DNA of 64,000 nucleotides from IMG/VR virus record IMGVR_UViG_3300032167_000006. One strand, given 5' to 3'. Below, one piece after another: positions 2,503 to 41,199 of the stretch. How positions within the stretch are numbered: the stretch's first letter is position 1; each line of letters opens with the position of its first letter. The notes below the pieces were generated by a model. That model was not told the origin of the DNA, ran no database searches, and saw only the letters and a list, made by a program, of their open reading frames with translations. This stretch comes from a virus. Lineage: Duplodnaviria > Caudoviricetes. The position numbers were made by a program, and so were the translations under genes.

Positions 2503-4227
2503 ATGGCAAAAGAAATCACATTAGACGATCTTGTTAAATCAAATCAAACTAACACAACAAAGGCTAAACCTGCAGTAAGAGCAGAAGAAATTAAAGAAGA
2601 ATCAGAAGTTGCGGCTAAGAAACCAGTTGTAGATTCTTCAAATATTAAAACTGCTAAGAAAATATCAACTGCTGAGCTTGGTAAAGATCTTCAGGCTAAA
2701 AATCCAGATGCTAAACCAAAGGTGGTCGAAGAGGATGCCCCTGTAGTTGCAAACGCATTTAAAGCTATGGAAGATACTCTTGCTGAGAAAAAAAGATTCT
2801 ATGATGAAGAAGTTTTTCCTGTAATGAGAGAAAATGCAAGAGAAATGGCAATGGAAAAAGAAATGGGAGAAGATTCAGAAGAATCTACTGTTGATACAGA
2901 AACTAATAATGCCTTCTTAGATAATGACTTTTCTGATCTTGAAGATGATGAAGAAGTTGAATCTAAAGATGATGGTGTTTATGTAGCTCCTGATGTAAAT
3001 GTAGAATCTAAAATAGAAGAAGAAGTTCATGCTATTGATGAAAAAGTAGAACCTATTGTTGAAAAAACCACTGATAAGAAAACTAAGCCTGCTAAAAAAG
3101 CAGAAGCATCTGAAGAGGAAATGGATCAAAATCTTGACGATCTTATGAAAGACCTTGGTCTTGAAGAGGAAGAAGATGATGTAATCGATACAGAAGAAGA
3201 AACAACTGAAGAGCTTCGTGAACGTTTTAAAGCTTCTCTTGAAGGCGTTAAAATTACACGTAATGAAATCGATCTTACAAAATTCCAGATTTCTAAAAAT
3301 CCTATAAGCTCTACAATGGCTCTTAATGCTATTGGTACAGCTGGTAATAAGAAGAGATGTGATCATCCGCTTCTCCATAGTAAGAGAAATATGACATTTG
3401 AAGAATGTAGTGGTCCTGAACTTGATGCTCTTCGTAAAACTATTAATAACAGTAATGGTATTAATGGTGTAATTGCATCACTTCGCTTTATTTATAATCA
3501 TAATATTGATGCTAATAAAAAGAGCTTTGAAGCTTGGTGTAAATCAATTCGTACAGAGGATATTGAATCACTCTACTTTGGTATGTATAAAGCTTGTTAT
3601 GGTGATACAAACCTTATAGCTAGAGCAGATGCTGGTGATAAGGGTTGCGATAAGACATCTCTTGTTGATACTCCTATTAAGGACATGCTTAAGTTTAAAG
3701 ATGATGAAGCTCAGAAGCTTTATGATGCTCTTATGGCACAAGATTCAACCAATCCTGGCGGTAAGATTAAATCACAAACTATGGTTGTATCTGATGATAT
3801 CGTTATCTCATACAGCGATCCTACACTGTACAGCACATTTATTCAGTATGCATCTCTTGATCCTAAGACTACAGAAAAGTATTCAGATCAGCTTAACACA
3901 ATGGCATACATTGATGGATTCTTCCGCATAGATTATGAGAACAATCAGCTTATTCCGATCGCTATTAAGGAATATCCTAATAATATTAATAAAACAATTA
4001 AGTCAAAACTTAAGACATATATTGATATTCTTAAGACTCTTACAAATGACCAGTATAATGTAATGACTACAAAACTGGATAATGTTATCGGCGAGTCTAA
4101 GATTTCTTATATTTATCCTGAAACAACATGTCCTGAATGTGAAAACACAATTCCTGAAGAGCCTATTGAGTCTATGCTTAACTTGCTTTTTACAAGAGCT
4201 CAGTTGGTTCAGGTCAAGAGTTTATAA
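2503..4227 (+). CDS. Baseplate hub assembly / tail assembly chaperone (T4 gp26-like C-terminus) with long acidic N-terminal extension
   Basis: C-terminal CPEC...LLF; follows the gp25-like gene; acidic low-complexity N-terminal half. Confidence 0.55.
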   Translation: MAKEITLDDLVKSNQTNTTKAKPAVRAEEIKEESEVAAKKPVVDSSNIKTAKKISTAELGKDLQAKNPDAKPKVVEEDAPVVANAFKAMEDTLAEKKRFYDEEVFPVMRENAREMAMEKEMGEDSEESTVDTETNNAFLDNDFSDLEDDEEVESKDDGVYVAPDVNVESKIEEEVHAIDEKVEPIVEKTTDKKTKPAKKAEASEEEMDQNLDDLMKDLGLEEEEDDVIDTEEETTEELRERFKASLEGVKITRNEIDLTKFQISKNPISSTMALNAIGTAGNKKRCDHPLLHSKRNMTFEECSGPELDALRKTINNSNGINGVIASLRFIYNHNIDANKKSFEAWCKSIRTEDIESLYFGMYKACYGDTNLIARADAGDKGCDKTSLVDTPIKDMLKFKDDEAQKLYDALMAQDSTNPGGKIKSQTMVVSDDIVISYSDPTLYSTFIQYASLDPKTTEKYSDQLNTMAYIDGFFRIDYENNQLIPIAIKEYPNNINKTIKSKLKTYIDILKTLTNDQYNVMTTKLDNVIGESKISYIYPETTCPECENTIPEEPIESMLNLLFTRAQLVQVKSL

Positions 4228-4409
4228 CCAAAATAGAATCTATTGCTACATATTATAAGGGCAGAACATCGTTCATGGAATTGATGAATATGCCCTTATC
4301 ATATATAGATGCTCTTTACCGAATCGCTGAGGAACGATTGAAAACAGAAGAAGGTAAAAAACAATTAGAATCAGAAGCTTTAGAAGATGAATTGGAGGAC
4401 GCTTTATAA
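4182..4409 (+). CDS. Unannotated -1 frame ORF overlapping the end of 2503..4227; probable frameshift extension (gp51/gpT-like)
   Basis: Open 75 codons ...EFITKIESIATYYKGRTSFMELMNMPLSYIDALYRIAEERLKTEEGKKQLESEALEDELEDAL*; stop overlaps the next ATG (TAATG); T-run at 4187-4191. Confidence 0.65.
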   Translation, partial: LAFYKSSVGSGQEFITKIESIATYYKGRTSFMELMNMPLSYIDALYRIAEERLKTEEGKKQLESEALEDELEDAL

Positions 4410-4714
4410 TGGATACATTAAATTTCGTAAAAGATGTACCCGCTGAGCAACTCGCATTAATCTTTAAAGATTATTTTGAACAACACATGTTTGCATATGA
4501 TTTACTTAGAGGAATTCAATTCGGAGGTATTAATTCAGTAGATATAAATACCGCTTCTATAATGTATTCTATTAGGCTTCTTGATACTGAAGATAAAGAT
4601 TCATTAGTAAAGCATTTGAATTCTAAAGCTGGATCATTAATAATATATGGTAAACACTATGTTCCTGAGATATTTTTCAGCGGCGATTTACTGTGCATTA
4701 CAATAAAAAAATAA
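4409..4714 (+). CDS. Hypothetical protein
   Basis: GGAGG RBS; coupled to the upstream stop; followed by a hairpin. Confidence 0.7.
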   Translation: MDTLNFVKDVPAEQLALIFKDYFEQHMFAYDLLRGIQFGGINSVDINTASIMYSIRLLDTEDKDSLVKHLNSKAGSLIIYGKHYVPEIFFSGDLLCITIKK

Positions 4715-4726
4715 AAAGATAAATAT

Positions 4727-4750
4727 TCCCCAGGGATTGCTCCCTGGGGA
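4727..4750. terminator. Bidirectional hairpin between convergent genes
   Basis: TCCCCAGGGA TTGC TCCCTGGGGA. Confidence 0.8.
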
Positions 4751-4763
4751 TTTAATTTAATCT

Positions 4764-5993
4764 TTAATAATCTTTTAATATAATGCCACGTTTTATAAGT
4801 TTATCACATACATCTTTTAAAGATGTATTACCAAAATTTCTAATTTTAAGTAAATCCTCTTTTGATTTTTTACTTAATTCAGAAATTGTATTTATACCTA
4901 CATCCGTCAAAGCATTATATGACCTAACTGATATATTTAAAGATTCTATATTATCTGGATATATCATGTTATTAGAATCTAATATAATGCCATGTTTCAT
5001 AAGCTTATCACATATATCTTTTAAACCTACAGTACCAAGATTTCTAATTTTAAGTAAATCCTCTTTTGATTTTTCCTTTAATTCAGAAACTGTATTTATA
5101 TATGCACGTTTTAAACATACGTATGCTCTAGTAGATAAATTTAAACATTCTATACAATCATCGATATGTATTGTTGAATTGGTGTGTTCATTATACCCAG
5201 TTTTTATATATTCTAATCTTGCTGGATGCCTTAATAAACGTAAAGCTTTATGATGTATTTGCCCTATTCTGCCAGCGCTTTTATTAAAGCGTTTAGCCAT
5301 TGATACATTGGTTTCTTTGCATACACCTATACCATATTTATATTTGACAATAGTAATCATAAATTCATTAAAAATGCTAATTAAAACTTCAAGACATCTA
5401 AGCTCTTCATCATCAGAAAGAGTAACAGAATCCACATTATATACATCTGCCATAAGAAGTTCTAATCCATATTTTACACCATGTATTTTTCTGTTATCAT
5501 TATTATTGGAATTTGATCTTAATACAAGACCATAGTCTTTTAAATTTTCTACAATATTATCTACGCTTCTTGCACTAATACCATTAAGTTGTAGTAAATC
5601 TAGCTTTGTCTTTGTTATAAGTTCTGAAATTTTGTTAATATTATTTTTTAAAAGAATATTATAAGTACGAGTTGTTAAATTAAGATTATATATATCATCA
5701 GTATCATTTATTTTATCTAAATATAAATTTAATTTATATTTTATACGATTATACATAGAATACGTACATCCTGTTGTAGTACCAATTGTTTCTGCAATTT
5801 TTTCAAATGTTTCATTATCTTCATATTTACTCTTTATAATAAACTTTTCTTTATCATTAAGTCTAAGATAGATTAATTCTTTTAATGTATTTTCTGTTTT
5901 TTGATCTAAAATACAATTTTCGGTTCCTTGATTTTTAGTAAGATCTGCGTATAATTTTTTAACTGCGTCATGTGTAAGTTGTTCGTTTTTCAT
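4764..5993 (-). CDS. Sigma70 region 4 / RNAP alpha-CTD multi-module protein (s4-aCTD-s4-aCTD-aCTD)
   Basis: RIGQIHHKALRLLRHPAR (region 4.2); three alpha-CTD-like units, e.g. LNLSTRAYVCLKRAYINTVSEL...DLLKIRNLG. Confidence 0.85.
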   Translation of the reverse strand: MKNEQLTHDAVKKLYADLTKNQGTENCILDQKTENTLKELIYLRLNDKEKFIIKSKYEDNETFEKIAETIGTTTGCTYSMYNRIKYKLNLYLDKINDTDDIYNLNLTTRTYNILLKNNINKISELITKTKLDLLQLNGISARSVDNIVENLKDYGLVLRSNSNNNDNRKIHGVKYGLELLMADVYNVDSVTLSDDEELRCLEVLISIFNEFMITIVKYKYGIGVCKETNVSMAKRFNKSAGRIGQIHHKALRLLRHPARLEYIKTGYNEHTNSTIHIDDCIECLNLSTRAYVCLKRAYINTVSELKEKSKEDLLKIRNLGTVGLKDICDKLMKHGIILDSNNMIYPDNIESLNISVRSYNALTDVGINTISELSKKSKEDLLKIRNFGNTSLKDVCDKLIKRGIILKDY

Positions 5994-6058
5994 AATAATA
6001 GTCCTTTGTTAAAATAAGATAATTAAAAAATAATTTTTATAAACTGCTACATAATATA

Positions 6059-6562
6059 TTATTCCTCATTTAATACTATACCACGTGTCTTTAATACATC
6101 AACAATTTCTTTAATGCCTTCTTCATTCATCATTCTAACTGATCTGAGATCATCTAAAGTTTTTGTTGATAATTCTTCAATAGAATTTATTCTTGCTCTA
6201 CGTAAAACATTATAAGTGCGAACAGAAAGATCAAGATTAATAATATCACTATCATTTTTCTGTTGTTTTTCTATCTGCGCATAAAATCTAAATTTTCGAA
6301 GAGCTTTTGATTCTATTTGTCTGATTCGTTCTCTTGTCACTCCAAATATTTTAGCCGTCTCTTCTAAAGTTTTCTGTTCGAAAATTCTGTATTTGATAGT
6401 ATCAAGTTCTCTATCAGTAAATTTTCCCATTGTTTTTATAAAGCTTAATTCTTCTTCAGCTGTTACTTCGTGGTTAATATTTTCTTCTATTGCTCCATTG
6501 GTAGCAACATATAATGCCTTCATGCCTTCTTTGGTAATAGAATTTATTTTTGTATTTTCCAT
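6059..6562 (-). CDS. Sigma70 region 4 - RNAP alpha-CTD fusion protein
   Basis: KTLEETAKIFGVTRERIRQIESKALRKFR followed by LDLSVRTYNVLRRARINSIEEL. Confidence 0.88.
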   Translation of the reverse strand: MENTKINSITKEGMKALYVATNGAIEENINHEVTAEEELSFIKTMGKFTDRELDTIKYRIFEQKTLEETAKIFGVTRERIRQIESKALRKFRFYAQIEKQQKNDSDIINLDLSVRTYNVLRRARINSIEELSTKTLDDLRSVRMMNEEGIKEIVDVLKTRGIVLNEE

Positions 6563-6624
6563 TGTTGAATTTCCTTTCTTTTTTTAATAATTTTATTTTA
6601 AATAATTCAACTTCTATTCATGAT

Positions 6625-6634
6625 TATAATATAT
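6625..6634 (-). promoter_or_regulatory. Early-type promoter ATATATTATA (sigma4-alphaCTD genes)
   Basis: Motif recurs ahead of accessory and nvRNAP genes. Confidence 0.6.
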
Positions 6635-6685
6635 AATTTAATTAATAAAAAATTACATTAAAAAAATAACCCTAGGGATAATCCC

Positions 6686-7156
6686 CTAGGATTTTATATA
6701 TTTTAAATGAATATAACGTTTTAAGAATTCTATTTTTGATATGAAAGATAGTTTATTATATTTAGAAAGTTGTAATAAAGCCTGCTTTACAAAATTAACT
6801 CCAAGTATAGATACAGCATATTCATCAGCATCATATTCCATTTTAGGCGTAAATCCAAAAGAACGCATAAATACCAATTTCTTAGTAATATCTTTAACAG
6901 TATTTAAATGCTTTAGTTTTATATGCCCAATTTCATGATACAATATGAATTGCTGTACATTATTTTCTAATTGTGAAAAATTAGTATCTGTTAGTATCAA
7001 TCCTGCATTTTTTACATTACCAATAACTGGCACTGCAGCGCTAAATATAAAACCATTTTTATACATAAACTCATCGCAAAAATCTTCATAAATAAATACA
7101 TTTGTATCTATATCCTGCATAAGTATTTTCCATTTACTCATATCATTTATATCCAT
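6686..7156 (-). CDS. Zincin metallopeptidase-like protein (M48-like)
   Basis: ILYHEIGH plus downstream EYDADEYA. Confidence 0.65.
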   Translation of the reverse strand: MDINDMSKWKILMQDIDTNVFIYEDFCDEFMYKNGFIFSAAVPVIGNVKNAGLILTDTNFSQLENNVQQFILYHEIGHIKLKHLNTVKDITKKLVFMRSFGFTPKMEYDADEYAVSILGVNFVKQALLQLSKYNKLSFISKIEFLKRYIHLKYIKS

Positions 7157-7255
7157 TTTATTCCCTCTTTCATTATATATTCAATTTTATAATATACGTT
7201 TACTTATATTTACTTTTACTCGACATTTTAATAAATTGAAAAGGAGGTTAAGTAT

Positions 7256-8899
7256 ATGGACAGAAAATTTACAATAGAACAATTAGACCAAGAAAGACTT
7301 ATTAAAGTAAATGATCTTCCTAAGGTTACTAACCCTGTTATATTTAATGCTAGTAGCCCTACAGGAGATGGATTACTTAGTAATGAATTATTTGGTATAA
7401 CAAAAGAAGAAAGAGCTGGCATATATGGTTATCTTGATTTAGAGGGAACTTTCATAAATCCATTTTATTATAAAATATGGTTAAAAATAGATCGTAACCT
7501 CAGGTCATGTATTTATGAGACTCAGAACTTTGTAATTTCCAAAGAAGGCTATTTGGAACCAAATGAGAACGGAGAGACAGGACTTAAATTTTTAATTAAA
7601 AATATTGATAATATAAACTTTAAGAATACTAAAAAGGATAATTTTCTTAAAGCTCTTATGGAAGCTAAAAAAGAAAATAAGTTATTCACAAAGAAGTTTG
7701 TTATTATCCCACCATACTATAGAGATGTAGATCATAAGTCTGGTGGTAGAGTTTCTATAGGTGAAATAAACAAGCTTTATGTGAATCTTCTTAATAATAT
7801 TAGAGCTTTAAATGAAATGCAAGATTATGGTTTATCTATAGCAGGTGGTATTAGAGGAAAAATTCAAGATAATCTGCTTGAAATATATAACTGGTTTACA
7901 GTTGGTGAATCTGTTATTGGTGGAGAACATACAGGTTCTGGTATATTTAAAAAGTTTGGCGTAATACGTAGAAGTGTTATGAGTAAAACAACAGACTATT
8001 CTGTTCGTTTAGTTTTATCAGCTGCAAATATTGATGTTGATAAAAAAGAAGACTTAATGGTAGATATGAATTATTCTGCTATACCATTATCTGCATCTTG
8101 TGTAATTGCATATCCATTTATAATTTACCAATTACGTCAATTCTTTAATAATGAATTTGGTGGCAGTATTTATTTTCAATTTATAACTAAAGATGGTAAT
8201 ATAGAACAAGTTGAATTGGATAATCCTCAGATTGCTTTTTCAGATGATAGATTTGATAAAGAATTAAATGAATTTATTCATGGTTATTCTAATCGTTTTA
8301 AAAGTGTTATTGTACCTAATAAAGAAAATAAAAATATACATCTTAAATTTAAGGGATACTCAATAACAGAAGAAGAATATAATAGAGGTATTAGAGAAAA
8401 TGGTAATATGATTGAAAGAGATATAACATGGATTGATATCTTTTATATTGCTGCTGTTGCTGCAACAGAAGATAAAATGGCTATGATTTCAAGATATCCA
8501 ATTGACTCACATTTCAATCAATTATATACAAAGATTCATGTAAATTCAACTATAGAAACAGAACCTATGGTTATAAATGGCAAATTCTATAAATGGTATC
8601 CTAAAATTCGTCAAGAAGATATTGGAAAAGATACATCTAATAAATTCGTAGATACTTGTCAGATTTCTAATCCATATTGCAAAATGATGGGTGCCGACTA
8701 CGATGGTGACCAGGTTACAGTATCTATGCCATTCTCTGTGGAAGCAAATAAAGAACTTGAGAATCATTTGAATTCTACAGGTCAGTTTATAGGTCTTAAT
8801 GGTGAAAATGGTCGTAAGGCTACTAATGAAGCAATACAGGCAATGTATAATCTAACATTAGTATTACCAGGCACAAAGCTTACAAATCCAGAATTTTAA
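7256..8899 (+). CDS. Multisubunit RNA polymerase beta'-like subunit, catalytic (N-terminal) piece; probably virion RNAP
   Basis: Catalytic ADYDGDQ; also DGLLSNELFG, IIPPYYRD, KTTDYSVRLV and SRYP; late-type promoter at 7222. Confidence 0.9.
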   Translation: MDRKFTIEQLDQERLIKVNDLPKVTNPVIFNASSPTGDGLLSNELFGITKEERAGIYGYLDLEGTFINPFYYKIWLKIDRNLRSCIYETQNFVISKEGYLEPNENGETGLKFLIKNIDNINFKNTKKDNFLKALMEAKKENKLFTKKFVIIPPYYRDVDHKSGGRVSIGEINKLYVNLLNNIRALNEMQDYGLSIAGGIRGKIQDNLLEIYNWFTVGESVIGGEHTGSGIFKKFGVIRRSVMSKTTDYSVRLVLSAANIDVDKKEDLMVDMNYSAIPLSASCVIAYPFIIYQLRQFFNNEFGGSIYFQFITKDGNIEQVELDNPQIAFSDDRFDKELNEFIHGYSNRFKSVIVPNKENKNIHLKFKGYSITEEEYNRGIRENGNMIERDITWIDIFYIAAVAATEDKMAMISRYPIDSHFNQLYTKIHVNSTIETEPMVINGKFYKWYPKIRQEDIGKDTSNKFVDTCQISNPYCKMMGADYDGDQVTVSMPFSVEANKELENHLNSTGQFIGLNGENGRKATNEAIQAMYNLTLVLPGTKLTNPEF

Positions 8900-11863: not shown

Positions 11864-12001
11864 AAAATTACCATAGAAACATAGAATATTTTATTGTTCC
11901 TTAACCTTTCTAAATAGAGTAATACTTCTAACCTCTATTCACAATTATAATATATAATTAAAAAATAAAATAATTACAGAGGTAGGGATAATCCCTACCT
12001 C

Positions 12002-15024: not shown

Positions 15025-16590
15025 TTAAATCGATGTAATAAATAACATAAGCTCTTCTTTTATTACATCGTTTATCATAGGAACATACTTGCCGTCCCAT
15101 GCTGTTGGCTCTCCCTTTTCGGTATCCCAATCAATTATTTCAAACGAAGAAGACATGACAGCTCCAATAAATTCATATATTTTTTGCTCAATCTTTGGAT
15201 TATTGTATTTTTGTTTTATTTGCTCATATAATTGGCTTGTCTCAATAGCAATCATATCTTTTTTACTTATAATCTTTCTTGTAGCAATTCTAAGAATACG
15301 TCCAGAAATAATATATGGAAGTATTACCATTCCTGAATTTAATAATTTTCTTTTAGCTGCAATAATAAGTTTAATATAATCTGTTTGGTTATGTATAGCT
15401 AATAAAGTAATTGGATCTCCAAAATCTTTATCATACATATAACTGATTAATTGTCTTTGGAATTCATTAATAGCTGGAGCGCCGTCTCTTGTTAGCTTCC
15501 TTCTATAATGCTCTATTTCAGCCTCATCAAATGGACCATATAAAGCTTCAATTTTGCTAACTGTTTGCTCTGCACTAACTTTATTTTGCAAAGCAAGAGC
15601 TTCATCTTTCTTATTTAAGCGAGCTTCATAGCGGTCATATTCACTATTCTGATCAGCATCACGCTTAGATGAGCTCATTTTATAAAATGGGTATTCATAA
15701 CGAATATCAGTGACCTTAAATTTAAGGCATTGTCTGCCACTAAAATATATGAAGTTAATAATATTATTATCATAGCTGTATTTAGGTATAATATTCATAA
15801 TGATATCAACTACAGTATCTTTAGTATGTGTAGTTGTATTAGTACCACGAATCTGATTCTTTTCCCAAAGTATTTTATCTGGATTCTTGGATTTATTAAC
15901 TATAGAAACAGCTGTTTCATATAGTTTATCATAAATATATATTCCTCTTTCTTCTTCATACTTAGTTACACATAAGTCAAATAAATTAAGCATAAATTTC
16001 TGAATTTCATCAGAAAACTTAATACCATGAATATACATGTAATGAGTAGCTAAGGGGATATACATATTCATTAGTAATGAAATTTCATAAAGTACTTTTG
16101 CATGATCATTATTAAACTGAAGATTAGGTGTTTTATTATTATTTGATGATAATTTCATAAGATAATTATCATCAACAAAATGCCTAACTTTATACGTTAA
16201 TTGAGAATTTCGAATTATATATCGATTGACATCATCCATAAAATGACCTATTTCATACGAACGCATATAGTCTATATTCAATTTAATTCTATAAAGTATC
16301 ATTAATAGTTCTTTATCATAATCATAGAACTTTTCAAAATAATTTAGATATCTACAGATATGCTCTCTTGTCTCATCAGAATTATAGCTACGTTTTGTGT
16401 TCATAGCAAAATAATTTAAAGAGCTCTTTTCGGGATCTCCATTATAGAAAAATTCTGCAATAGGTAAAATAATTTCTCCACGAATATTTCTAAATATTCT
16501 ATCTTGTTCTGTTATTGGATTGGCTTCGCTATCCCATTCATCTACAGGGATATGATTGCCTTTATCCACTATCTTACACATCTCAATCAT
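15025..16590 (-). CDS. Probable promoter-specificity (sigma-like) subunit of the non-virion RNAP (AR9 gp226 / phiKZ gp68-like)
   Basis: Inference only: 521-aa helical protein two genes from the chaperonin (AR9 has gp226 and chaperonin gp228) with an early-type promoter at 16620. Confidence 0.55.
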   Translation of the reverse strand: MIEMCKIVDKGNHIPVDEWDSEANPITEQDRIFRNIRGEIILPIAEFFYNGDPEKSSLNYFAMNTKRSYNSDETREHICRYLNYFEKFYDYDKELLMILYRIKLNIDYMRSYEIGHFMDDVNRYIIRNSQLTYKVRHFVDDNYLMKLSSNNNKTPNLQFNNDHAKVLYEISLLMNMYIPLATHYMYIHGIKFSDEIQKFMLNLFDLCVTKYEEERGIYIYDKLYETAVSIVNKSKNPDKILWEKNQIRGTNTTTHTKDTVVDIIMNIIPKYSYDNNIINFIYFSGRQCLKFKVTDIRYEYPFYKMSSSKRDADQNSEYDRYEARLNKKDEALALQNKVSAEQTVSKIEALYGPFDEAEIEHYRRKLTRDGAPAINEFQRQLISYMYDKDFGDPITLLAIHNQTDYIKLIIAAKRKLLNSGMVILPYIISGRILRIATRKIISKKDMIAIETSQLYEQIKQKYNNPKIEQKIYEFIGAVMSSSFEIIDWDTEKGEPTAWDGKYVPMINDVIKEELMLFITSI

Positions 16591-16619
16591 ATCTATTGTC
16601 CTCCTTATGATGTCAAAAA

Positions 16620-16629
16620 TATAATATAC
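16620..16629 (-). promoter_or_regulatory. Early-type promoter GTATATTATA (sigma-like subunit)
   Basis: Same motif about 30 nt before the start codon. Confidence 0.6.
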
Positions 16630-16643
16630 AATTCAATTAATAT

Positions 16644-20888: not shown

Positions 20889-22037
20889 TTAGGTCATATC
20901 AGGATAAAATACCTGAATAGCACTATCATATCTATCTCTTACAGTCTGCTCTTTTGCTGCTCTCTGTCTAATATCGTAGAGATCGTTTAAAGCATCCATT
21001 ACAGATTTTCTTTCATCTTCACTAATATTCTCTGCAAGATAATCCTGAAGGATTGTTACATCTGTATTTACCTGACGAATAATATACATTAAATCTTCAG
21101 CAGATTCTGCTGTTCTAAGTCTAAGATTAAGCTCATATATATCATTTTTTATAGAGCGAATACCTTTGATTTTAAAGTCATTAAACTTCTTAGAGAATCT
21201 TGCTTTGATATCATCAATAAATCCTTCATTAAGACCAAGATCTGTTCTGCTCATTATATTTGCAGCGTATGTAAGTTCTCTCTGTTCAAGCTTAGATGCA
21301 GTAAGTTGCTTTGCTTTATTAAGAGTTCTTACAGCTGGTAATCTACGAAGAACAAATTCATTTCTTAATCTTAATACCCAAGATAATGCAATGAAACGAT
21401 CATCTACACTTTTAGCCATATAAGTAGAAGATCTTACAACTTTTCTCATTGCAGATTCTAAATCAGGACCATATCCGCATGATACAACAAATGTATCTGC
21501 AATAGTTTCTGTATTGCCTACTTTAGTAAACAATGAACCCATTTTCACAATAGAGTCTTTAAGAGCATAACCGATAAGTTCTTTATATCCCTTTGAAGCA
21601 TTTAAATCTACATAATCTCCGGTTCTAGCAAAATATAAATCTATCTGAGCTCGTACTTCATCTATAGTAGATGTATCATAAACAATATGACCAACCTCGT
21701 GTAATAATATAGCCGTCTTCTCTCTTTTATTTAATCCAAGCATTGGATCAAATAACTTAGAATCTAACTCTACATAATATTCTTCAAATGCTGATGTTTT
21801 CTTATCCCCTAAGATTTCCATAGCTTTATCGCCATCAAAGATAGGATAAACCCTCATGCCAAAGAAGAGCTTATCAGTATTTACTGTATAAAGAACCTCT
21901 TTACATTTTGCTTTAATAAAGAATTTATTAAGTTCATTTCTAAGTTTAGAAAGATCTGAAGAAGAATGATTATCTTCCATATTAAACATGAGTTTTTCAA
22001 TCATGCCAAAGTTATAATTACTTGCTACTCTTTCCAT
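20889..22037 (-). CDS. Putative virion protein with HEXXH metallopeptidase motif
   Basis: ILLHEVGH...ETIADTF; downstream of the capsid gene under a late promoter. Confidence 0.55.
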   Translation of the reverse strand: MERVASNYNFGMIEKLMFNMEDNHSSSDLSKLRNELNKFFIKAKCKEVLYTVNTDKLFFGMRVYPIFDGDKAMEILGDKKTSAFEEYYVELDSKLFDPMLGLNKREKTAILLHEVGHIVYDTSTIDEVRAQIDLYFARTGDYVDLNASKGYKELIGYALKDSIVKMGSLFTKVGNTETIADTFVVSCGYGPDLESAMRKVVRSSTYMAKSVDDRFIALSWVLRLRNEFVLRRLPAVRTLNKAKQLTASKLEQRELTYAANIMSRTDLGLNEGFIDDIKARFSKKFNDFKIKGIRSIKNDIYELNLRLRTAESAEDLMYIIRQVNTDVTILQDYLAENISEDERKSVMDALNDLYDIRQRAAKEQTVRDRYDSAIQVFYPDMT

Positions 22038-22203
22038 CTATTTTACCTCCATCTATTTTATTTTCTGTAGGAACATTTTTCTTTAATTTATCATCCCAAT
22101 GAGTATATACGCTATTTAAATCATGCATAGGATATGTCATTGGTTTTGAAGGAGATGTTGTATTGGTAATAACAACACCTCTTGTAGTTACAATATTATT
22201 CAT
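22018..22203 (-). CDS. Small hypothetical protein
   Basis: First ORF after the AACA-N6-TA motif at 22230-22241. Confidence 0.5.
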   Translation of the reverse strand: MNNIVTTRGVVITNTTSPSKPMTYPMHDLNSVYTHWDDKLKKNVPTENKIDGGKIDGKSSK

Positions 22204-22343
22204 ATACGTCCCAACTTCCTAAAAGTTTTTATATTATTGTTCAGGAGTTTCAATAACATTAGTGAAATAAATCCAGGATGCCAATTAAGGCATCCTGAAC
22301 TATTATTTATTTAATAAATTAACGACTTCACAATCATTTATTA

Positions 22344-24194
22344 TTAGAGAGTATTCTCAGTTACTTCGTTAGCACCTGTCTCAGGATTATAGTGGCTATA
22401 TACTGAGCCGAGATCATTATTTGAGTACATTGTACCGATAGGATCTACATTAGGGAGGTGCTCACGTAAACCAGAGGGATTAGCAACGAAGAGTCTGCCC
22501 TGAACTTCCTGGAATCCAAAGAACTTGTATCTCTGGAAGGCAGTGAGTGCGGGAAGGCTGGGATTCTCTGCATCTCTGATTTCATTTGAGATATACATCT
22601 GGTAGTCATAGAGACGATAGATAATTCTGTTTGTATTCTTAGGAATAAGAAGTACGATAAGATTATCATTACCAAAGAGCTTATCTGAAGAAATGAAGTT
22701 GTAAACTCTCTTATCTGAAGTAACAACAGTCTTCTTGAAGTCAAGCTCGATAGGACCTACGTTAGCAGGTGTCTGGTAAGCATACTCAACAGGTGTGATC
22801 ATTCTGATAAGGCCAGGACGACCAATGATGTTGATCTGCATGTTAGGATCTCTCAGTACTGTAAGAAGACCTGTGATGAACTGATCCAATGTGTTCATGA
22901 AAGTCTCCTGGAGCCACTGGAGATGTGTGCCGTAGTAACCATCGCGGGGAGCGAAGTCTACAGTCTTAGCAAGCTTATGATCGTTATCAAGGCGAGCAAA
23001 TGACTCATCAAGGTGCTCCTTAATATCATCATCCTTAACGTTCTCCATGATATCCTTAATCATGCTCATGTATTTAGTAACCTGGTTGATGCCATAGAGA
23101 GCACCGATATCCTTAACTTCCTCAGGAGTAATCGGAATGGTGATACCATCATTCTCAGGAATCTGAACGAATGTTGTTCTCTCCTGCCACTCAACACGGT
23201 TTGTCTTAAGCATTCTTGAAGAAGCATCGTAACGAGCTACCATCTTAACAGCCTTAATCTTGCCGCCAGAATTGATCTCGAACATATTCTCCTGCTGTGA
23301 AGCAAAGATTGTGTCGTGGAAGATTTCCTCAACACCGCCCTCGCCAACGATTTTAATATCTACAGGCTTAACGATGATTCTGTTGTACTCACCATAACCA
23401 GGAGTGAACTCAGCTTTCCAAGGTTTCCACATAAGAGCAACGCCAGCCTCTTCAGCGGGAGCCTCTGTGTATGTAACTCTACCAGCTTCATCCTTACCCT
23501 CTGTAAGAACCATATCACCAACTTCAGCATAAGCTTCGATAGCTACAGCACCGATGTGTGTTGCAACTGAAAGATGATGTGAAAGTCTTGATACGTTGAA
23601 GTACTCATCAAGGATGTCGATTGTATGAGCCTCGGGAAGGGGCATAACAACCTCTACCGGCTTATTTGTATCCTTCCAAGCGCCGAAGATCTCATTCTGC
23701 TGATTAGCGATATCAATCTTACGACCATCGGGAGTAACCATGTAACGAGTCTCCATTGTCTCTGTCCAAGCTGGAGCTTTAGCAACGAATCTCGGAACAG
23801 CCTGAGCAAATACACAGTTGAGCATGAGATATTTATGCATGGGGAGCGAGAGACCGATCATCGGATTCCAGCTAGCCATACCAGCTACAGCGTTCTCTCT
23901 AACGGCCTGATAGTCGTTAATAAACGCCTCTTTCATCATGTCAACCTGATCCTGATATTCCTCAGTTGTCATGTGGTTGCGGTCGCCAATAACCGCGTTC
24001 TCTACGAAAAATGACTGCAGCTGATCAACGTTACCCTTGAGTGAGAGAGCACGAGTTGGCTCTGAAGCATAATCAATACCAGATTCTCTGAGAATGTTCT
24101 GCTGTGCCTCAAGGAAAGATGCTGCATATGCGTGCATGGGATTCTTGGCAAAATTACCCATGTTAGGATTTTTTCTTTCACCTACGCTAGGCAT
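22344..24194 (-). CDS. Major capsid protein; likely start MPSVG at 24194
   Basis: About 616 aa; strongest codon bias and highest GC in the window; own late promoter, GGAGG RBS and terminator; near the protease gene; N-terminal propeptide-like segment. Confidence 0.8.
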   Translation of the reverse strand: MPSVGERKNPNMGNFAKNPMHAYAASFLEAQQNILRESGIDYASEPTRALSLKGNVDQLQSFFVENAVIGDRNHMTTEEYQDQVDMMKEAFINDYQAVRENAVAGMASWNPMIGLSLPMHKYLMLNCVFAQAVPRFVAKAPAWTETMETRYMVTPDGRKIDIANQQNEIFGAWKDTNKPVEVVMPLPEAHTIDILDEYFNVSRLSHHLSVATHIGAVAIEAYAEVGDMVLTEGKDEAGRVTYTEAPAEEAGVALMWKPWKAEFTPGYGEYNRIIVKPVDIKIVGEGGVEEIFHDTIFASQQENMFEINSGGKIKAVKMVARYDASSRMLKTNRVEWQERTTFVQIPENDGITIPITPEEVKDIGALYGINQVTKYMSMIKDIMENVKDDDIKEHLDESFARLDNDHKLAKTVDFAPRDGYYGTHLQWLQETFMNTLDQFITGLLTVLRDPNMQINIIGRPGLIRMITPVEYAYQTPANVGPIELDFKKTVVTSDKRVYNFISSDKLFGNDNLIVLLIPKNTNRIIYRLYDYQMYISNEIRDAENPSLPALTAFQRYKFFGFQEVQGRLFVANPSGLREHLPNVDPIGTMYSNNDLGSVYSHYNPETGANEVTENTL

Positions 24195-24286
24195 ACGTAT
24201 TACCTCCAATTTTTTGAATTTTTAATTTTCTTTTAAAGAATAATTATTTATATAAATAATTAGGCTTATATTTAATCCTAAATATT

Positions 24287-32646: not shown

Positions 32647-32764
32647 TTATTTGTCCTCCTCAAGACATAATTTTTATTTATATTTATAGTGACCTTTTAA
32701 GATATTCTATATCTTATTACACTATTATATTATATAATTAAAAAAACCTTTAATTACAAAAATA

Positions 32765-35161: not shown

Positions 35162-37357
35162 TTATTTTCCTTCTTTTTCTACAATCTTAACCATTTCTAT
35201 ACCTTTATCAGGATCATTAATTTTAACATCATCGCTAAATAATCCATCTGACATATAGACCTGAGGTTGCTCACAGAAGAATAAATCAAAGAATGATGGT
35301 GCATGCTTAGAATATGACAGCGGATCATAGAGAACTTTACCAAGATTCTTATACAATAATGATACAACAATACTAGGATTATTAACAAGAGCATGGTCAA
35401 GTGTTAATAATTTATATTGTGTATATGGATTATTCCAATTAGGTTTAGCTAATACATTATCGGGTGATACTATCTGATTTGCCAATATTACTTCAAGATG
35501 AACAGCATCTACATCAAGTCCACCATCTATTACCAAATCAATAAGAGTCTGTAAGGCTTCATCTTTAGTCATCTTTTCAGTGACATCAGATTTATTAATA
35601 CAGTTAATAATATCATTCATAGTCTTACTAATCTCATCATTTGATATTTTGATATAGAATAATATATCTTCGGTAAGAGCACTTAAAGGAATAGCTACCT
35701 TACCATCTACAGCAGAAGCTTTATTACGAATTTGCTTATTAAGCTCATTTGAAATATATAAAGAATCATTATCTTGAGTTCCACATTCTATCATTTCACC
35801 AGTAGGTGTTTGTATATAGAATCTGGTAACGTATTCATTATAAACTCCAGAATTTTCATCTATATCAAAAGCTATTTCATTACCATCATCATCATATGAT
35901 ATAGTATCTTCTTCCTCATTAACAAGAAATACATCTTCTGGATCTATAATCATAAAATATTTCTTAAGATCTATGTCATCTAAATCTGTAAGTTTAATAG
36001 CATTAGATTCTACATCAAAGAAATCTTGAAATTGCGGTAACCATTTCATGGCAACAATATGAGTTTCAAGAAGATGTTTTGCTGATAATAGAATCTGTGT
36101 TAATATTGATGATAATATTTCTGCAGCAATCTTACCTACGTTAATATTAATATTGGTGTAGAAAAGATCTCCATAACAGCATTTACAAATACCTGTACCT
36201 GAAGTTCTAGATGCACAAGTCATTGGACTTTTAAGATATATAGTTTGACCTATAAGATGCTTATCTTTTTTATAATCAACAAGATACTGCATACCATTAG
36301 GTTTAAAACGATAATATCTATTTTTAATCATATTAAGATGCTTCTCAGTTTTTACTTCATACTTCATAAAATGCTGAGACATGCATTCATAATTAAAATC
36401 TGGATTCAATATAGTGTCAATATTATTCAGTCCAAGAAGTCTTGCAAAGTCACCAGAATCACCAACGTTATTCTTAGATAGAATCTGAGCTTTTCTAGCT
36501 GTAGATGATTCTATAAAATAATCTGTTGGCGTATTAACGCCACCTGTAGTAAAGCTTCTGTCAATCTTATGATCAAATACCAATCCATCATTAGCTGGTT
36601 TTGTGCCAATATTAAGTCTTGCTTCTTTAAACTGTCTTGGGTTTATAGCTTCAGATGCTTTAAAACTATTAGCAAGCCCATGGTCATAACCCAAATATTG
36701 TCTGCTATTTTTGATTATTTCAATAGCTTTATTTGTTGCTTCCATACCAGCATCCTTAACTTGGTCAAATGGCACATCGGCTAAAGATACATGAAGCAGA
36801 TCTCTATATGCAGGAACTGCCTTCATGAGTGCTATATCATCTTCATTATTAATTGTATTTGCTAAATAATAAGAAAAATGTTCTATATTACTATAGTTCC
36901 ATAATCCATCGCAAATATTATTATTCAGAAATACATTACCATATTTAATCTTATTTTCTTTTGTTAACACATATTCATCGACAAAGTTCTTAATATTTTT
37001 TCTTTTGAGCTCTGGTGACCAGAATATATGCTTAGGTCTTATTTGATTATTGTTTTTAAGCACCATACTCCACATGAATAAACTAAACCAATAATCCACA
37101 ATAAATAATTTGCAAGATATGTTATTCTCCCATGCAATTTCAATCATTAGATTATGTATATAATCCTCATCAATACCATCTTTTAAGATGGCTCCTATAC
37201 CATCAATATGGTCTGCAATGTTCTCTGCTGTTATATCCTTAGGAACATAGATTGAAATACATGTTTCACGATTTTTTATCATATCTGCATAGATATAATA
37301 ATTTTTAAAATTCACCAGATAAGTTTCTGGAATTTGTGTGGTTGTTGTTTGTGACAT
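35162..37357 (-). CDS. Multisubunit RNA polymerase beta'-like subunit, C-terminal piece; probably non-virion RNAP
   Basis: Bridge-helix-like SGDFARLL; zinc site KSPMTC...ICKCCYG; trigger-loop-like GKIAAEILSSILTQILLSAKH; VHLEVI; early-type promoter at 37387. Confidence 0.9.
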   Translation of the reverse strand: MSQTTTTQIPETYLVNFKNYYIYADMIKNRETCISIYVPKDITAENIADHIDGIGAILKDGIDEDYIHNLMIEIAWENNISCKLFIVDYWFSLFMWSMVLKNNNQIRPKHIFWSPELKRKNIKNFVDEYVLTKENKIKYGNVFLNNNICDGLWNYSNIEHFSYYLANTINNEDDIALMKAVPAYRDLLHVSLADVPFDQVKDAGMEATNKAIEIIKNSRQYLGYDHGLANSFKASEAINPRQFKEARLNIGTKPANDGLVFDHKIDRSFTTGGVNTPTDYFIESSTARKAQILSKNNVGDSGDFARLLGLNNIDTILNPDFNYECMSQHFMKYEVKTEKHLNMIKNRYYRFKPNGMQYLVDYKKDKHLIGQTIYLKSPMTCASRTSGTGICKCCYGDLFYTNININVGKIAAEILSSILTQILLSAKHLLETHIVAMKWLPQFQDFFDVESNAIKLTDLDDIDLKKYFMIIDPEDVFLVNEEEDTISYDDDGNEIAFDIDENSGVYNEYVTRFYIQTPTGEMIECGTQDNDSLYISNELNKQIRNKASAVDGKVAIPLSALTEDILFYIKISNDEISKTMNDIINCINKSDVTEKMTKDEALQTLIDLVIDGGLDVDAVHLEVILANQIVSPDNVLAKPNWNNPYTQYKLLTLDHALVNNPSIVVSLLYKNLGKVLYDPLSYSKHAPSFFDLFFCEQPQVYMSDGLFSDDVKINDPDKGIEMVKIVEKEGK

Positions 37358-41125: not shown

Positions 41126-41129
41126 AATT

Positions 41130-41139
41130 ATATATTATA
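41130..41139 (+). promoter_or_regulatory. Early-type promoter ATATATTATA (Trp-repeat operon)
   Basis: Same motif directly after a terminator. Confidence 0.6.
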
Positions 41140-41199
41140 ATAGTGATAGTAAATGAGGTCGATATTGCTATTAATAAAATTTATAGGAGAATAAATATT

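Follow-up and report, generated by a model that had tools for sequence, protein, structure and literature searches.

Stand-alone copies of sigma region 4 and the RNA polymerase alpha C-terminal domain in a giant phage, and their possible action on host promoters

In the RNA polymerase (RNAP) holoenzyme, the C-terminal domain of the alpha subunit (aCTD) and region 4 of the sigma factor (sigma4) lie next to each other on UP/-35 DNA, as in PDB entry 3N97 (see also 1LB2 and 1KU7). Here we describe two adjacent phage genes whose products are built from the same two folds. They lie near the start of a 64,000-nucleotide stretch of DNA (the window) from the IMG/VR virus record IMGVR_UViG_3300032167_000006 (Duplodnaviria; Caudoviricetes), and 3n97 chains are among the sequence and fold matches of their products. 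The smaller product, of 167 amino acids (aa), keeps the full -35-reading helix of the holoenzyme unit. Whereas that unit joins the polymerase core, however, the phage products are free polypeptides without sigma region 2 or the N-terminal domain of alpha (alpha-NTD), and several of their module copies have lost DNA-contact residues.

The same two host modules are the target of several early phage products, namely AsiA/MotA and Alt/ModA of T4, ORF67 of staphylococcal phage G1 and p4 of phi29. These factors bind or modify the host modules, whereas the proteins described here are copies of them, and we found no sequence or fold relation of our proteins to AsiA, MotA, ORF67 or p4. SigA region 4 in 4g6d ranked second among all sequence matches and first among those to the sigma4 half; entry 4G6D is the complex of this region with ORF67. 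A further point of comparison is provided by the minimal phage sigma factors and T4 gp33 (single helix-turn-helix, binding the beta flap), which are also stand-alone sigma4-like proteins of large phages (surveyed in PMC7824862). Those factors occur in jumbo phages without an RNAP of their own and work with a region-2 partner, gp55, whereas the window phage is of the RNAP-encoding type (group-1 jumbo phages), in which sigma factors are missing according to the same survey (PMC7824862). A split sigma factor with its region-2 partner encoded elsewhere was considered and rejected: Sigma70_r2 (PF04542) had no match at E <= 0.1 in the 82.6-kb record of which the window is a part and which holds about a third of the genome.

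No paper on a sigma4-aCTD architecture was found in the literature searched. An earlier note, made from the DNA letters, knew of no characterised host shut-off system with this architecture, and our search of the literature and of family databases agrees with it. Neither the modules nor the general idea that phages interfere with host transcription is new; what the sources searched do not describe is a free protein made of copies of the promoter-reading parts. The reading that we favour, tentatively and from the sequence, is that the two genes encode early, dispensable, host-directed promoter mimics that would interfere with host SigA transcription.

Domain structure of the two proteins

The earlier note had placed two adjacent genes here, encoding proteins of the orders sigma4-aCTD and sigma4-aCTD-sigma4-aCTD-aCTD. 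Both open reading frames are present, at 6059-6562(-) (167 aa) and 4764-5993(-) (409 aa), each preceded by an AAAGGA Shine-Dalgarno-like sequence, and both module orders were borne out by Pfam scans for Sigma70_r4 and RNA_pol_A_CTD, by hidden Markov models (HMMs) of the family described below and by structural models. The 167-aa protein consists of an N-terminal helix, sigma4, a short helical connector and aCTD; in the Pfam scan, residues 46-92 match Sigma70_r4 (PF04545; E 8.3e-14, 51 bits) and residues 98-158 match RNA_pol_A_CTD (PF03118; E 3e-13, 50 bits). Its sigma4 module (6272-6445(-), residues 40-97), which only 39 residues precede, shares 45% identity with SigA region 4 (9fog_F) over 65 columns. 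The helix GVTRERIRQIESKALRK, which had been singled out as a near-canonical primary-sigma recognition helix, was found at residues 74-90 with the canonical TRERIRQ intact. The aCTD module (6062-6271(-), residues 98-167) keeps the equivalents of R265 and N268, and its second hairpin reads MMNEEG versus NLGRKS in relatives. On the two family module profiles the protein scores 85 bits (sigma4) and 84 bits, the protein itself being among the 25 sequences behind them. Its AlphaFold2 model (mean predicted local distance difference test, pLDDT, of 84) matched the B. subtilis aCTD 1z3e_B with a template modelling (TM) score of 0.90 by target and a root-mean-square deviation (rmsd) of 2.1. The short connector would be compatible with adjacent modules as in 3N97.

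The 409-aa protein is an array in the order sigma4-like, aCTD, sigma4-like, aCTD, aCTD. The Pfam scan matched it to RNA_pol_A_CTD in three stretches (E 5.4e-44) and, weakly, to Sigma70_r4 in two (E 8e-8). By the family HMMs, residues 96-159, 278-338 and 347-407 are aCTDs, and residues 39-73 and 230-259 are sigma4-like. The first sigma4-like module (5700-5903(-), residues ~31-98) has a degenerate recognition helix (TTGCTYSMYNRIKYKL) and is a putative assignment made from sequence only (family HMM E 2.8e-7 for residues 39-73; PHROG 1740 over 36-100), with a model pLDDT of 36-63 there. It is followed by aCTD 1 (5511-5699(-), residues 99-161), the most divergent copy, with a family HMM score of 38.6 bits and Pfam matches to both HHH_5 and RNA_pol_A_CTD. 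Next come the helix YGLELLMADVY and the second sigma4-like module (together 5193-5498(-), residues 166-267, pLDDT 78-95), where model residues 190-267 align with residues 534-611 of E. coli sigma70, with 77 positions aligned at an rmsd of 3.2 (VIA-align, Z 9.4). The last two modules, aCTD 2 and aCTD 3 (4767-5180(-), residues 272-409), form a tandem duplication with a mutual identity of 61%, and their models match solved aCTDs with Z 12-13.4.

Neither protein matched Sigma70_r2 or alpha-NTD (PF01000 / PF01193) at E <= 1, and alpha-NTD was not found in the 82.6-kb record either. Therefore, as the earlier note had argued from the missing parts, neither protein is a real sigma or alpha subunit. 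The fold of the RNAP alpha C-terminal domain was confirmed in four PF03118 copies across the two proteins, and the domain calls and folds of both are secure. For both modules the closest solved chains are from Firmicutes (alpha of C. difficile and B. subtilis; SigA of S. aureus and B. subtilis), and the closest natural aCTDs are those of Clostridia RpoA. When host RpoA and the fusion family were compared as the origin of the modules, identities were similar (45-60%) and did not discriminate between the two.

The fusion family and its DNA-contact residues

Both proteins have Sigma70_r4 followed by RNA_pol_A_CTD and no other catalytic or assembly domain, and on these grounds they belong to a large family. 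A word-seeded search returned more than 100 clusters with both Pfam domains, 180-290 aa long and nearly all unnamed, and an exhaustive HMMER search found 2,217 proteins at E <= 1e-30 among 1.84 billion cluster representatives. Family members (PF04545 plus PF03118, 180-300 aa) share the domain order and the conserved helices of the window proteins. They differ in their usual 40-60-residue coiled linker, which the window proteins do not have, in an NLGRKS hairpin, which the window proteins have lost, and in an N-terminal YPxNL..AIFG motif, of which the window proteins have a degenerate form only. The full-length identity of the window proteins to any relative is <= 34%, and among the relatives retrieved the five-module order of the 409-aa protein was seen only in the window phage.

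The family is almost all phage-borne. In a pattern scan the fusion was encoded on 22 of the 80 viral contigs listed, and in a scan of genome contigs it was not found among the 80 bacterial loci listed, all of which were ordinary rpoD or rpoA genes. This listing does not establish that bacteria are free of the fusion, and one NCBI genome assembly, with a 1.97-Mb contig, carries it. Neither Pfam nor NCBIfam has a model covering the fusion. A blastn search of the locus against cultured phages gave no match, and with tblastn neither the 167-aa protein nor a typical family member led to an annotated cultured phage that has the full architecture; the sole full-length match was an unannotated 7.6-kb faecal contig.

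The retrieved relatives comprise 185 single sigma4-aCTD units and others with two to eleven aCTDs, with repeated units or with SNF2 helicase fusions. Multi-unit relatives include P0331 and P0131; P0241 and P0257 carry 10-11 tandem aCTDs; in P0242 and P0243 the modules are joined to SNF2/ResIII helicases, and in P0240 to three Spo0A_C domains. In L011/L027 an SNF2 helicase is encoded separately, by a gene that overlaps the fusion gene at the latter's end. A 227.5-kb metagenomic contig (L184, 8001-10065) has a pair of genes comparable to that of the window, encoding a 543-aa protein with two sigma4-aCTD units, each after a YPxNL motif, followed by a 138-aa sigma4-only protein.

Such arrays and fusions suit a role as sequence-tolerant DNA-binding or architectural proteins, with aCTD serving as a helix-hairpin-helix (HhH) minor-groove module as in the 10-11-copy arrays. 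Proteins of this kind could coat AT-rich phage DNA (28% G+C) or host-nucleoid DNA for protection, compaction or the targeting of partners such as SNF2 helicases. The very AT-rich phage genome, the overlap of aCTD matches with generic HhH families and the gene neighbours of the fusion are consistent with it, DNA methyltransferases standing beside it in 8 of 19 viral loci and helicases in 7 of 19; the fusion genes lie in phage early or replication regions. Against it, the near-invariant SigA-type recognition helix of the family argues for a specific hexamer target, the aCTDs of the window phage have lost basic hairpin residues, and the genes are dispensable in relatives. We regard an architectural role as rather improbable.

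In E. coli, R584, E585, R586, R588 and Q589 of sigma70 have roles in -35 contact, and R265, N268, C269, G296, K298 and S299 have roles in DNA binding by aCTD. The earlier note had set a loss of the DNA-contact residues across homologues against its own proposal, and we found instead that they are retained. Equivalents of the five sigma residues are kept in 84-97% of 244 fusion-protein sigma4 modules; in 352 aCTD modules the figures are 91% for R265, 83% for N268, 69% for C269, 91% for G296, 75% for K298 (K or R) and 72% for S299. The sigma4 of the 167-aa protein retains all -35-contact residues. Among the four aCTD copies of the window proteins, the R265 equivalent is present in four, N268 in three, S299 and G296 in two each and K298 only as R in one.

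Several findings weigh against interference at host promoters. The R584, E585 and R588 equivalents are gone from each sigma4 helix of the 409-aa protein, and of the three sigma4 modules of the window phage only one keeps its -35-reading residues. The second hairpin of the 167-aa aCTD is acidic or neutral (G296N, K297E, K298E and S299G equivalents) and this domain is net acidic (-2); in the 409-aa protein the K298 equivalent is missing from two aCTDs out of three, and the K298/S299 hairpin is altered in three of the four aCTDs overall, so that most modules are affected. Mutant studies of sigma70 and alpha tie the lost residues to DNA binding. The sequence TTGACA occurs 19 times in the phage record, versus 24.5 +/- 4.4, and is thus neither avoided nor enriched; full -35/-10 counts in the record likewise gave no significant enrichment or avoidance. 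There is therefore no sign of selection around such binding, and these counts do not help in choosing between readings. The neighbours of family genes are chiefly replication and methylation genes and are not specific to host shut-off. A separate point concerns the link to phage polymerases: four near-complete phages of 60-200 kb carry the fusion and have no match to the beta' subunit of the window phage, so that the design is not confined to RNAP-encoding phages.

The same note had proposed a tethered UP/-35 clamp. Family members keep the contact residues on which a clamp would depend and the window copies have mostly lost them; because of this loss, the family consensus suits a literal clamp better than the 167-aa and 409-aa proteins do.

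For the same reason, a reading in which the proteins act as protein decoys or sponges stays alive: folds and protein-contact surfaces would be kept so as to titrate factors that dock on SigA region 4 or aCTD. Proposed targets, whether of the host, a rival phage or a defence system, are Spx-type regulators, activators, anti-sigmas, NusA, modifying enzymes and the beta flap, and avidity would come from the four copies of aCTD. Of the seven modules, five have lost DNA-contact residues and retain the fold and hydrophobic core. All four aCTDs keep the tyrosine by which the Firmicute aCTD helix contacts Spx; 1z3e is the closest solved structure. In the second sigma4 of the 409-aa protein, which has lost its R584, E585 and R588 equivalents, the tail KALRLLRHPAR is kept, and KALRxLRHP is a known activator and aCTD contact patch. 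The variable accessory slot of the genes, described below, is also typical of host-interaction genes. However, a pure decoy would have no use for the DNA-reading residues, all of which are kept in the sigma4 of the 167-aa protein; DNA contacts are conserved family-wide; and the 409-aa protein is basic (isoelectric point 8.7), with a net charge of +8 on its second sigma4. On balance a decoy role seems less likely than the favoured reading, of which it is nevertheless a serious rival.

The N-terminal motif of the family bears on the beta flap as a decoy target. YPxNL..(A)IFG stands before each sigma4 in 153 of 178 single-unit members, and its degenerate counterparts in the window proteins are GMKALYVA, AVKKLYAD and YGLELLMADVY. 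The motif resembles the beta flap-tip helix LL(R/H)AIFGEKAREV, taken from five Firmicute rpoB genes, and a motif profile run against Firmicute RpoB had its best match in the flap-tip helix in four of five cases, at a marginal E of about 0.03-0.05. Against all PDB sequences the profile gave chance-level matches only, with no RpoB flap or sigma4-flap chimera. Complex prediction for the N-terminal 35 residues and the sigma4 module of the 167-aa protein scored 0.02 (mark 0.32), which weighs neither way on docking. The resemblance to the flap tip is thus weakly supported; if the motif did fill the flap-binding groove of sigma4, a flap decoy would be unlikely.

Transcription unit, variable slot and source phage

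The earlier note had called the promoter before the gene pair early-type, a label that is fair. The motif AATTATATATTATAAT-CA-TGA lies at 6618-6638(-), with a predicted start G near 6619; the 167-aa gene has its ATG 57 nt downstream of this G. It agrees at 12 of 13 bases with the early consensus of phage AR9, AAATATATATTAT-(6N)-G, which is read by the virion polymerase (PMC5312081), and has the G at equal spacing. Read as TATATATTAT-AATCAT-G (6619-6635(-)), it is an AT-rich extended consensus with the start G 6 nt downstream, as in AR9/phiKZ-type early units. The 19-base motif AATTATATATTATAAT-NN-TGA has three exact copies and three further near-exact ones in the window, each directly upstream of a gene; at <= 3 mismatches there are six matches versus a shuffle mean of 1.5, and none of 100 shuffles reached six. 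The short motif TATATTATAA was not enriched over chance, nor was the 10-mer plus N6-G with one mismatch. Expression of the pair is probably early.

Further copies of the 19-base motif, at 11939-11959(-), 16613-16633(-), 32719-32739(-) and 41126-41146(+), could define an early regulon of the phage; that at 16613-16633(-) lies directly upstream of an RNAP subunit gene. Two other promoter-like strings in the gene pair are within chance for AT-rich DNA, namely a one-mismatch early-like motif that overlaps the stop codon of the 167-aa gene (6044-6060(-)) and an AACA-N6-TA late-type string just before the ATG of the 409-aa gene (6004-6015(-)).

Two terminator hairpins bound the pair. One, at 6668-6693(-), has an 11-bp stem followed by a T run and closes the upstream peptidase gene; the other, at 4727-4750, is a two-way terminator with a 10-bp stem (seven G-C pairs) that separates the 409-aa gene from 4409-4714(+), which converges on it. 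Because it is bounded in this way and stands behind the early-like motif, the pair forms its own transcription unit.

This unit lies in a variable slot (4715-7255) between the conserved genes 4409-4714(+) and the beta' gene at 7256-8899(+). The flanking genes are syntenic in six loci of related giant phages (beta' 65-75% identical), where unrelated genes occupy a slot that measures about 75 bp, 1.35 kb or 3.7 kb. The gene pair was not found in five related giant phages, one of whose records is 98% complete and another of which has terminal repeats, and there is no aCTD anywhere in the five records. A 398-aa protein in the same slot of one relative (L178) was compared with the 409-aa protein and gave no relation. 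The slot also holds a gene for a 156-aa HExxH metallopeptidase-like protein (YHEIGH; 6686-7156(-)), with weak M48 and M78/IrrE-like matches and an early-like motif of its own at 7187-7196; like the pair, it was not found in the relatives. Because of the variable slot and the absence of these genes from relatives, we consider the pair and the peptidase gene to be cargo and not transcription apparatus of the lineage, and the 167-aa and 409-aa genes are predicted to be dispensable accessory genes.

That the phage has RNAPs of its own, as the earlier note assumed, is upheld by genes for phiKZ/AR9-type split RNAP subunits at 7256-8899(+), 15025-16590(-) and 35162-37357(-). With a large capsid protein and a chaperonin also encoded, these genes identify a giant phage with its own polymerases. 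The 82.6-kb record has a CheckV completeness of 33%; contigs of up to 259 kb carry the same phage in several metagenomes, and the phage DNA is 25-33% G+C. Phages with split subunits of this type do not need host RNAP for infection (PMC5312081).

The neighbouring polymerase gene raises the possibility that the two proteins regulate the phage's own genes, as a sigma4-like specificity or bridging factor for one of the phage polymerases or as a repressor or activator on phage DNA. The RNAPs of group-1 jumbo phages retain a flap domain whose sigma partner is not known (PMC7824862), the genes adjoin that for beta', and the diverged sigma4 helices of the 409-aa protein could read new sites. However, the genes were not found in any of the five related phages sharing these polymerases, the family is common among phages in which the beta' of the window phage has no match, and the record shows neither TTGACA enrichment nor a recurrent new motif in its third of the genome. 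Regulation of phage genes is therefore, in our view, quite improbable.

Other features of the phage were seen in passing. The beta' gene is continuous in the window and in L178. In L179-L183 its homologue matches in two to three pieces with gaps of about 300-400 nt and a break after residue 416 (at about 7245-7656; in L183 at 7278-7633 and 7872-8160). An intron, an intein or an insertion of a homing endonuclease could account for this. A 574-aa protein at 2503-4227(+) combines a long N-terminal half that is acidic and of low complexity with a CxxC pair in its C-terminal part; it is syntenic in all related giant phages at 45-52% identity and had no match in Pfam and PHROG families. The G+C content peaks locally at 0.41, versus ~0.28, at 22001-24000, across a gene (22344-24209(-)) with a match to a family of major head proteins.

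Proposed action and meaning for the family

We favour a host-directed role because the genes are dispensable in relatives, stand behind an early-type promoter and encode Firmicute SigA/RpoA-like modules, and because related phages do not need the host polymerase. The fusions of relatives to Spo0A DNA-binding domains and SNF2 translocases also point to action on DNA at host-type promoters. Further support comes from the size and phage association of the family, from its occurrence in phages with no match to the beta' subunit of the window phage, and from the -35 and UP contact residues that it retains. As stand-alone copies of the host modules that read the upstream promoter, the products would most likely act on host SigA transcription and not on the phage programme. 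Because its SigA-type region 4 is intact, the 167-aa protein should recognise -35-like TTGACA sites on host DNA; because it would be unable to recruit core polymerase, it would act there as a competitor of the holoenzyme. The 409-aa protein, a multivalent and partly degenerate array, would add avidity for DNA or for the partners of the modules. The early timing, the DNA target, the competition with holoenzyme and the effect on the host are all inferred.

It is possible, if doubtful, that phages have repeatedly made SigA region 4, aCTD and, in relatives, the Spo0A DNA-binding domain into free mix-and-match promoter mimics that occupy or disable host promoters. The early pair would then be an undescribed shut-off device that works by competition from subunit fragments and not as an enzyme inhibitor. 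The window phage offers a clean test case, since it should be able to transcribe its genes without the host polymerase.

If the proteins bind host promoters or regulators, they would be phage take-over factors of a new class, built from pieces of the very machine that they target. The family comprises thousands of gut and rumen phage proteins that have had neither name nor assay, and its members would be natural compact -35/UP-binding modules for Firmicute/Clostridia promoters, with possible use as probes or synthetic repressors. If they are ordinary DNA-binding regulators instead, this would still be the first annotation for a very common unknown family.

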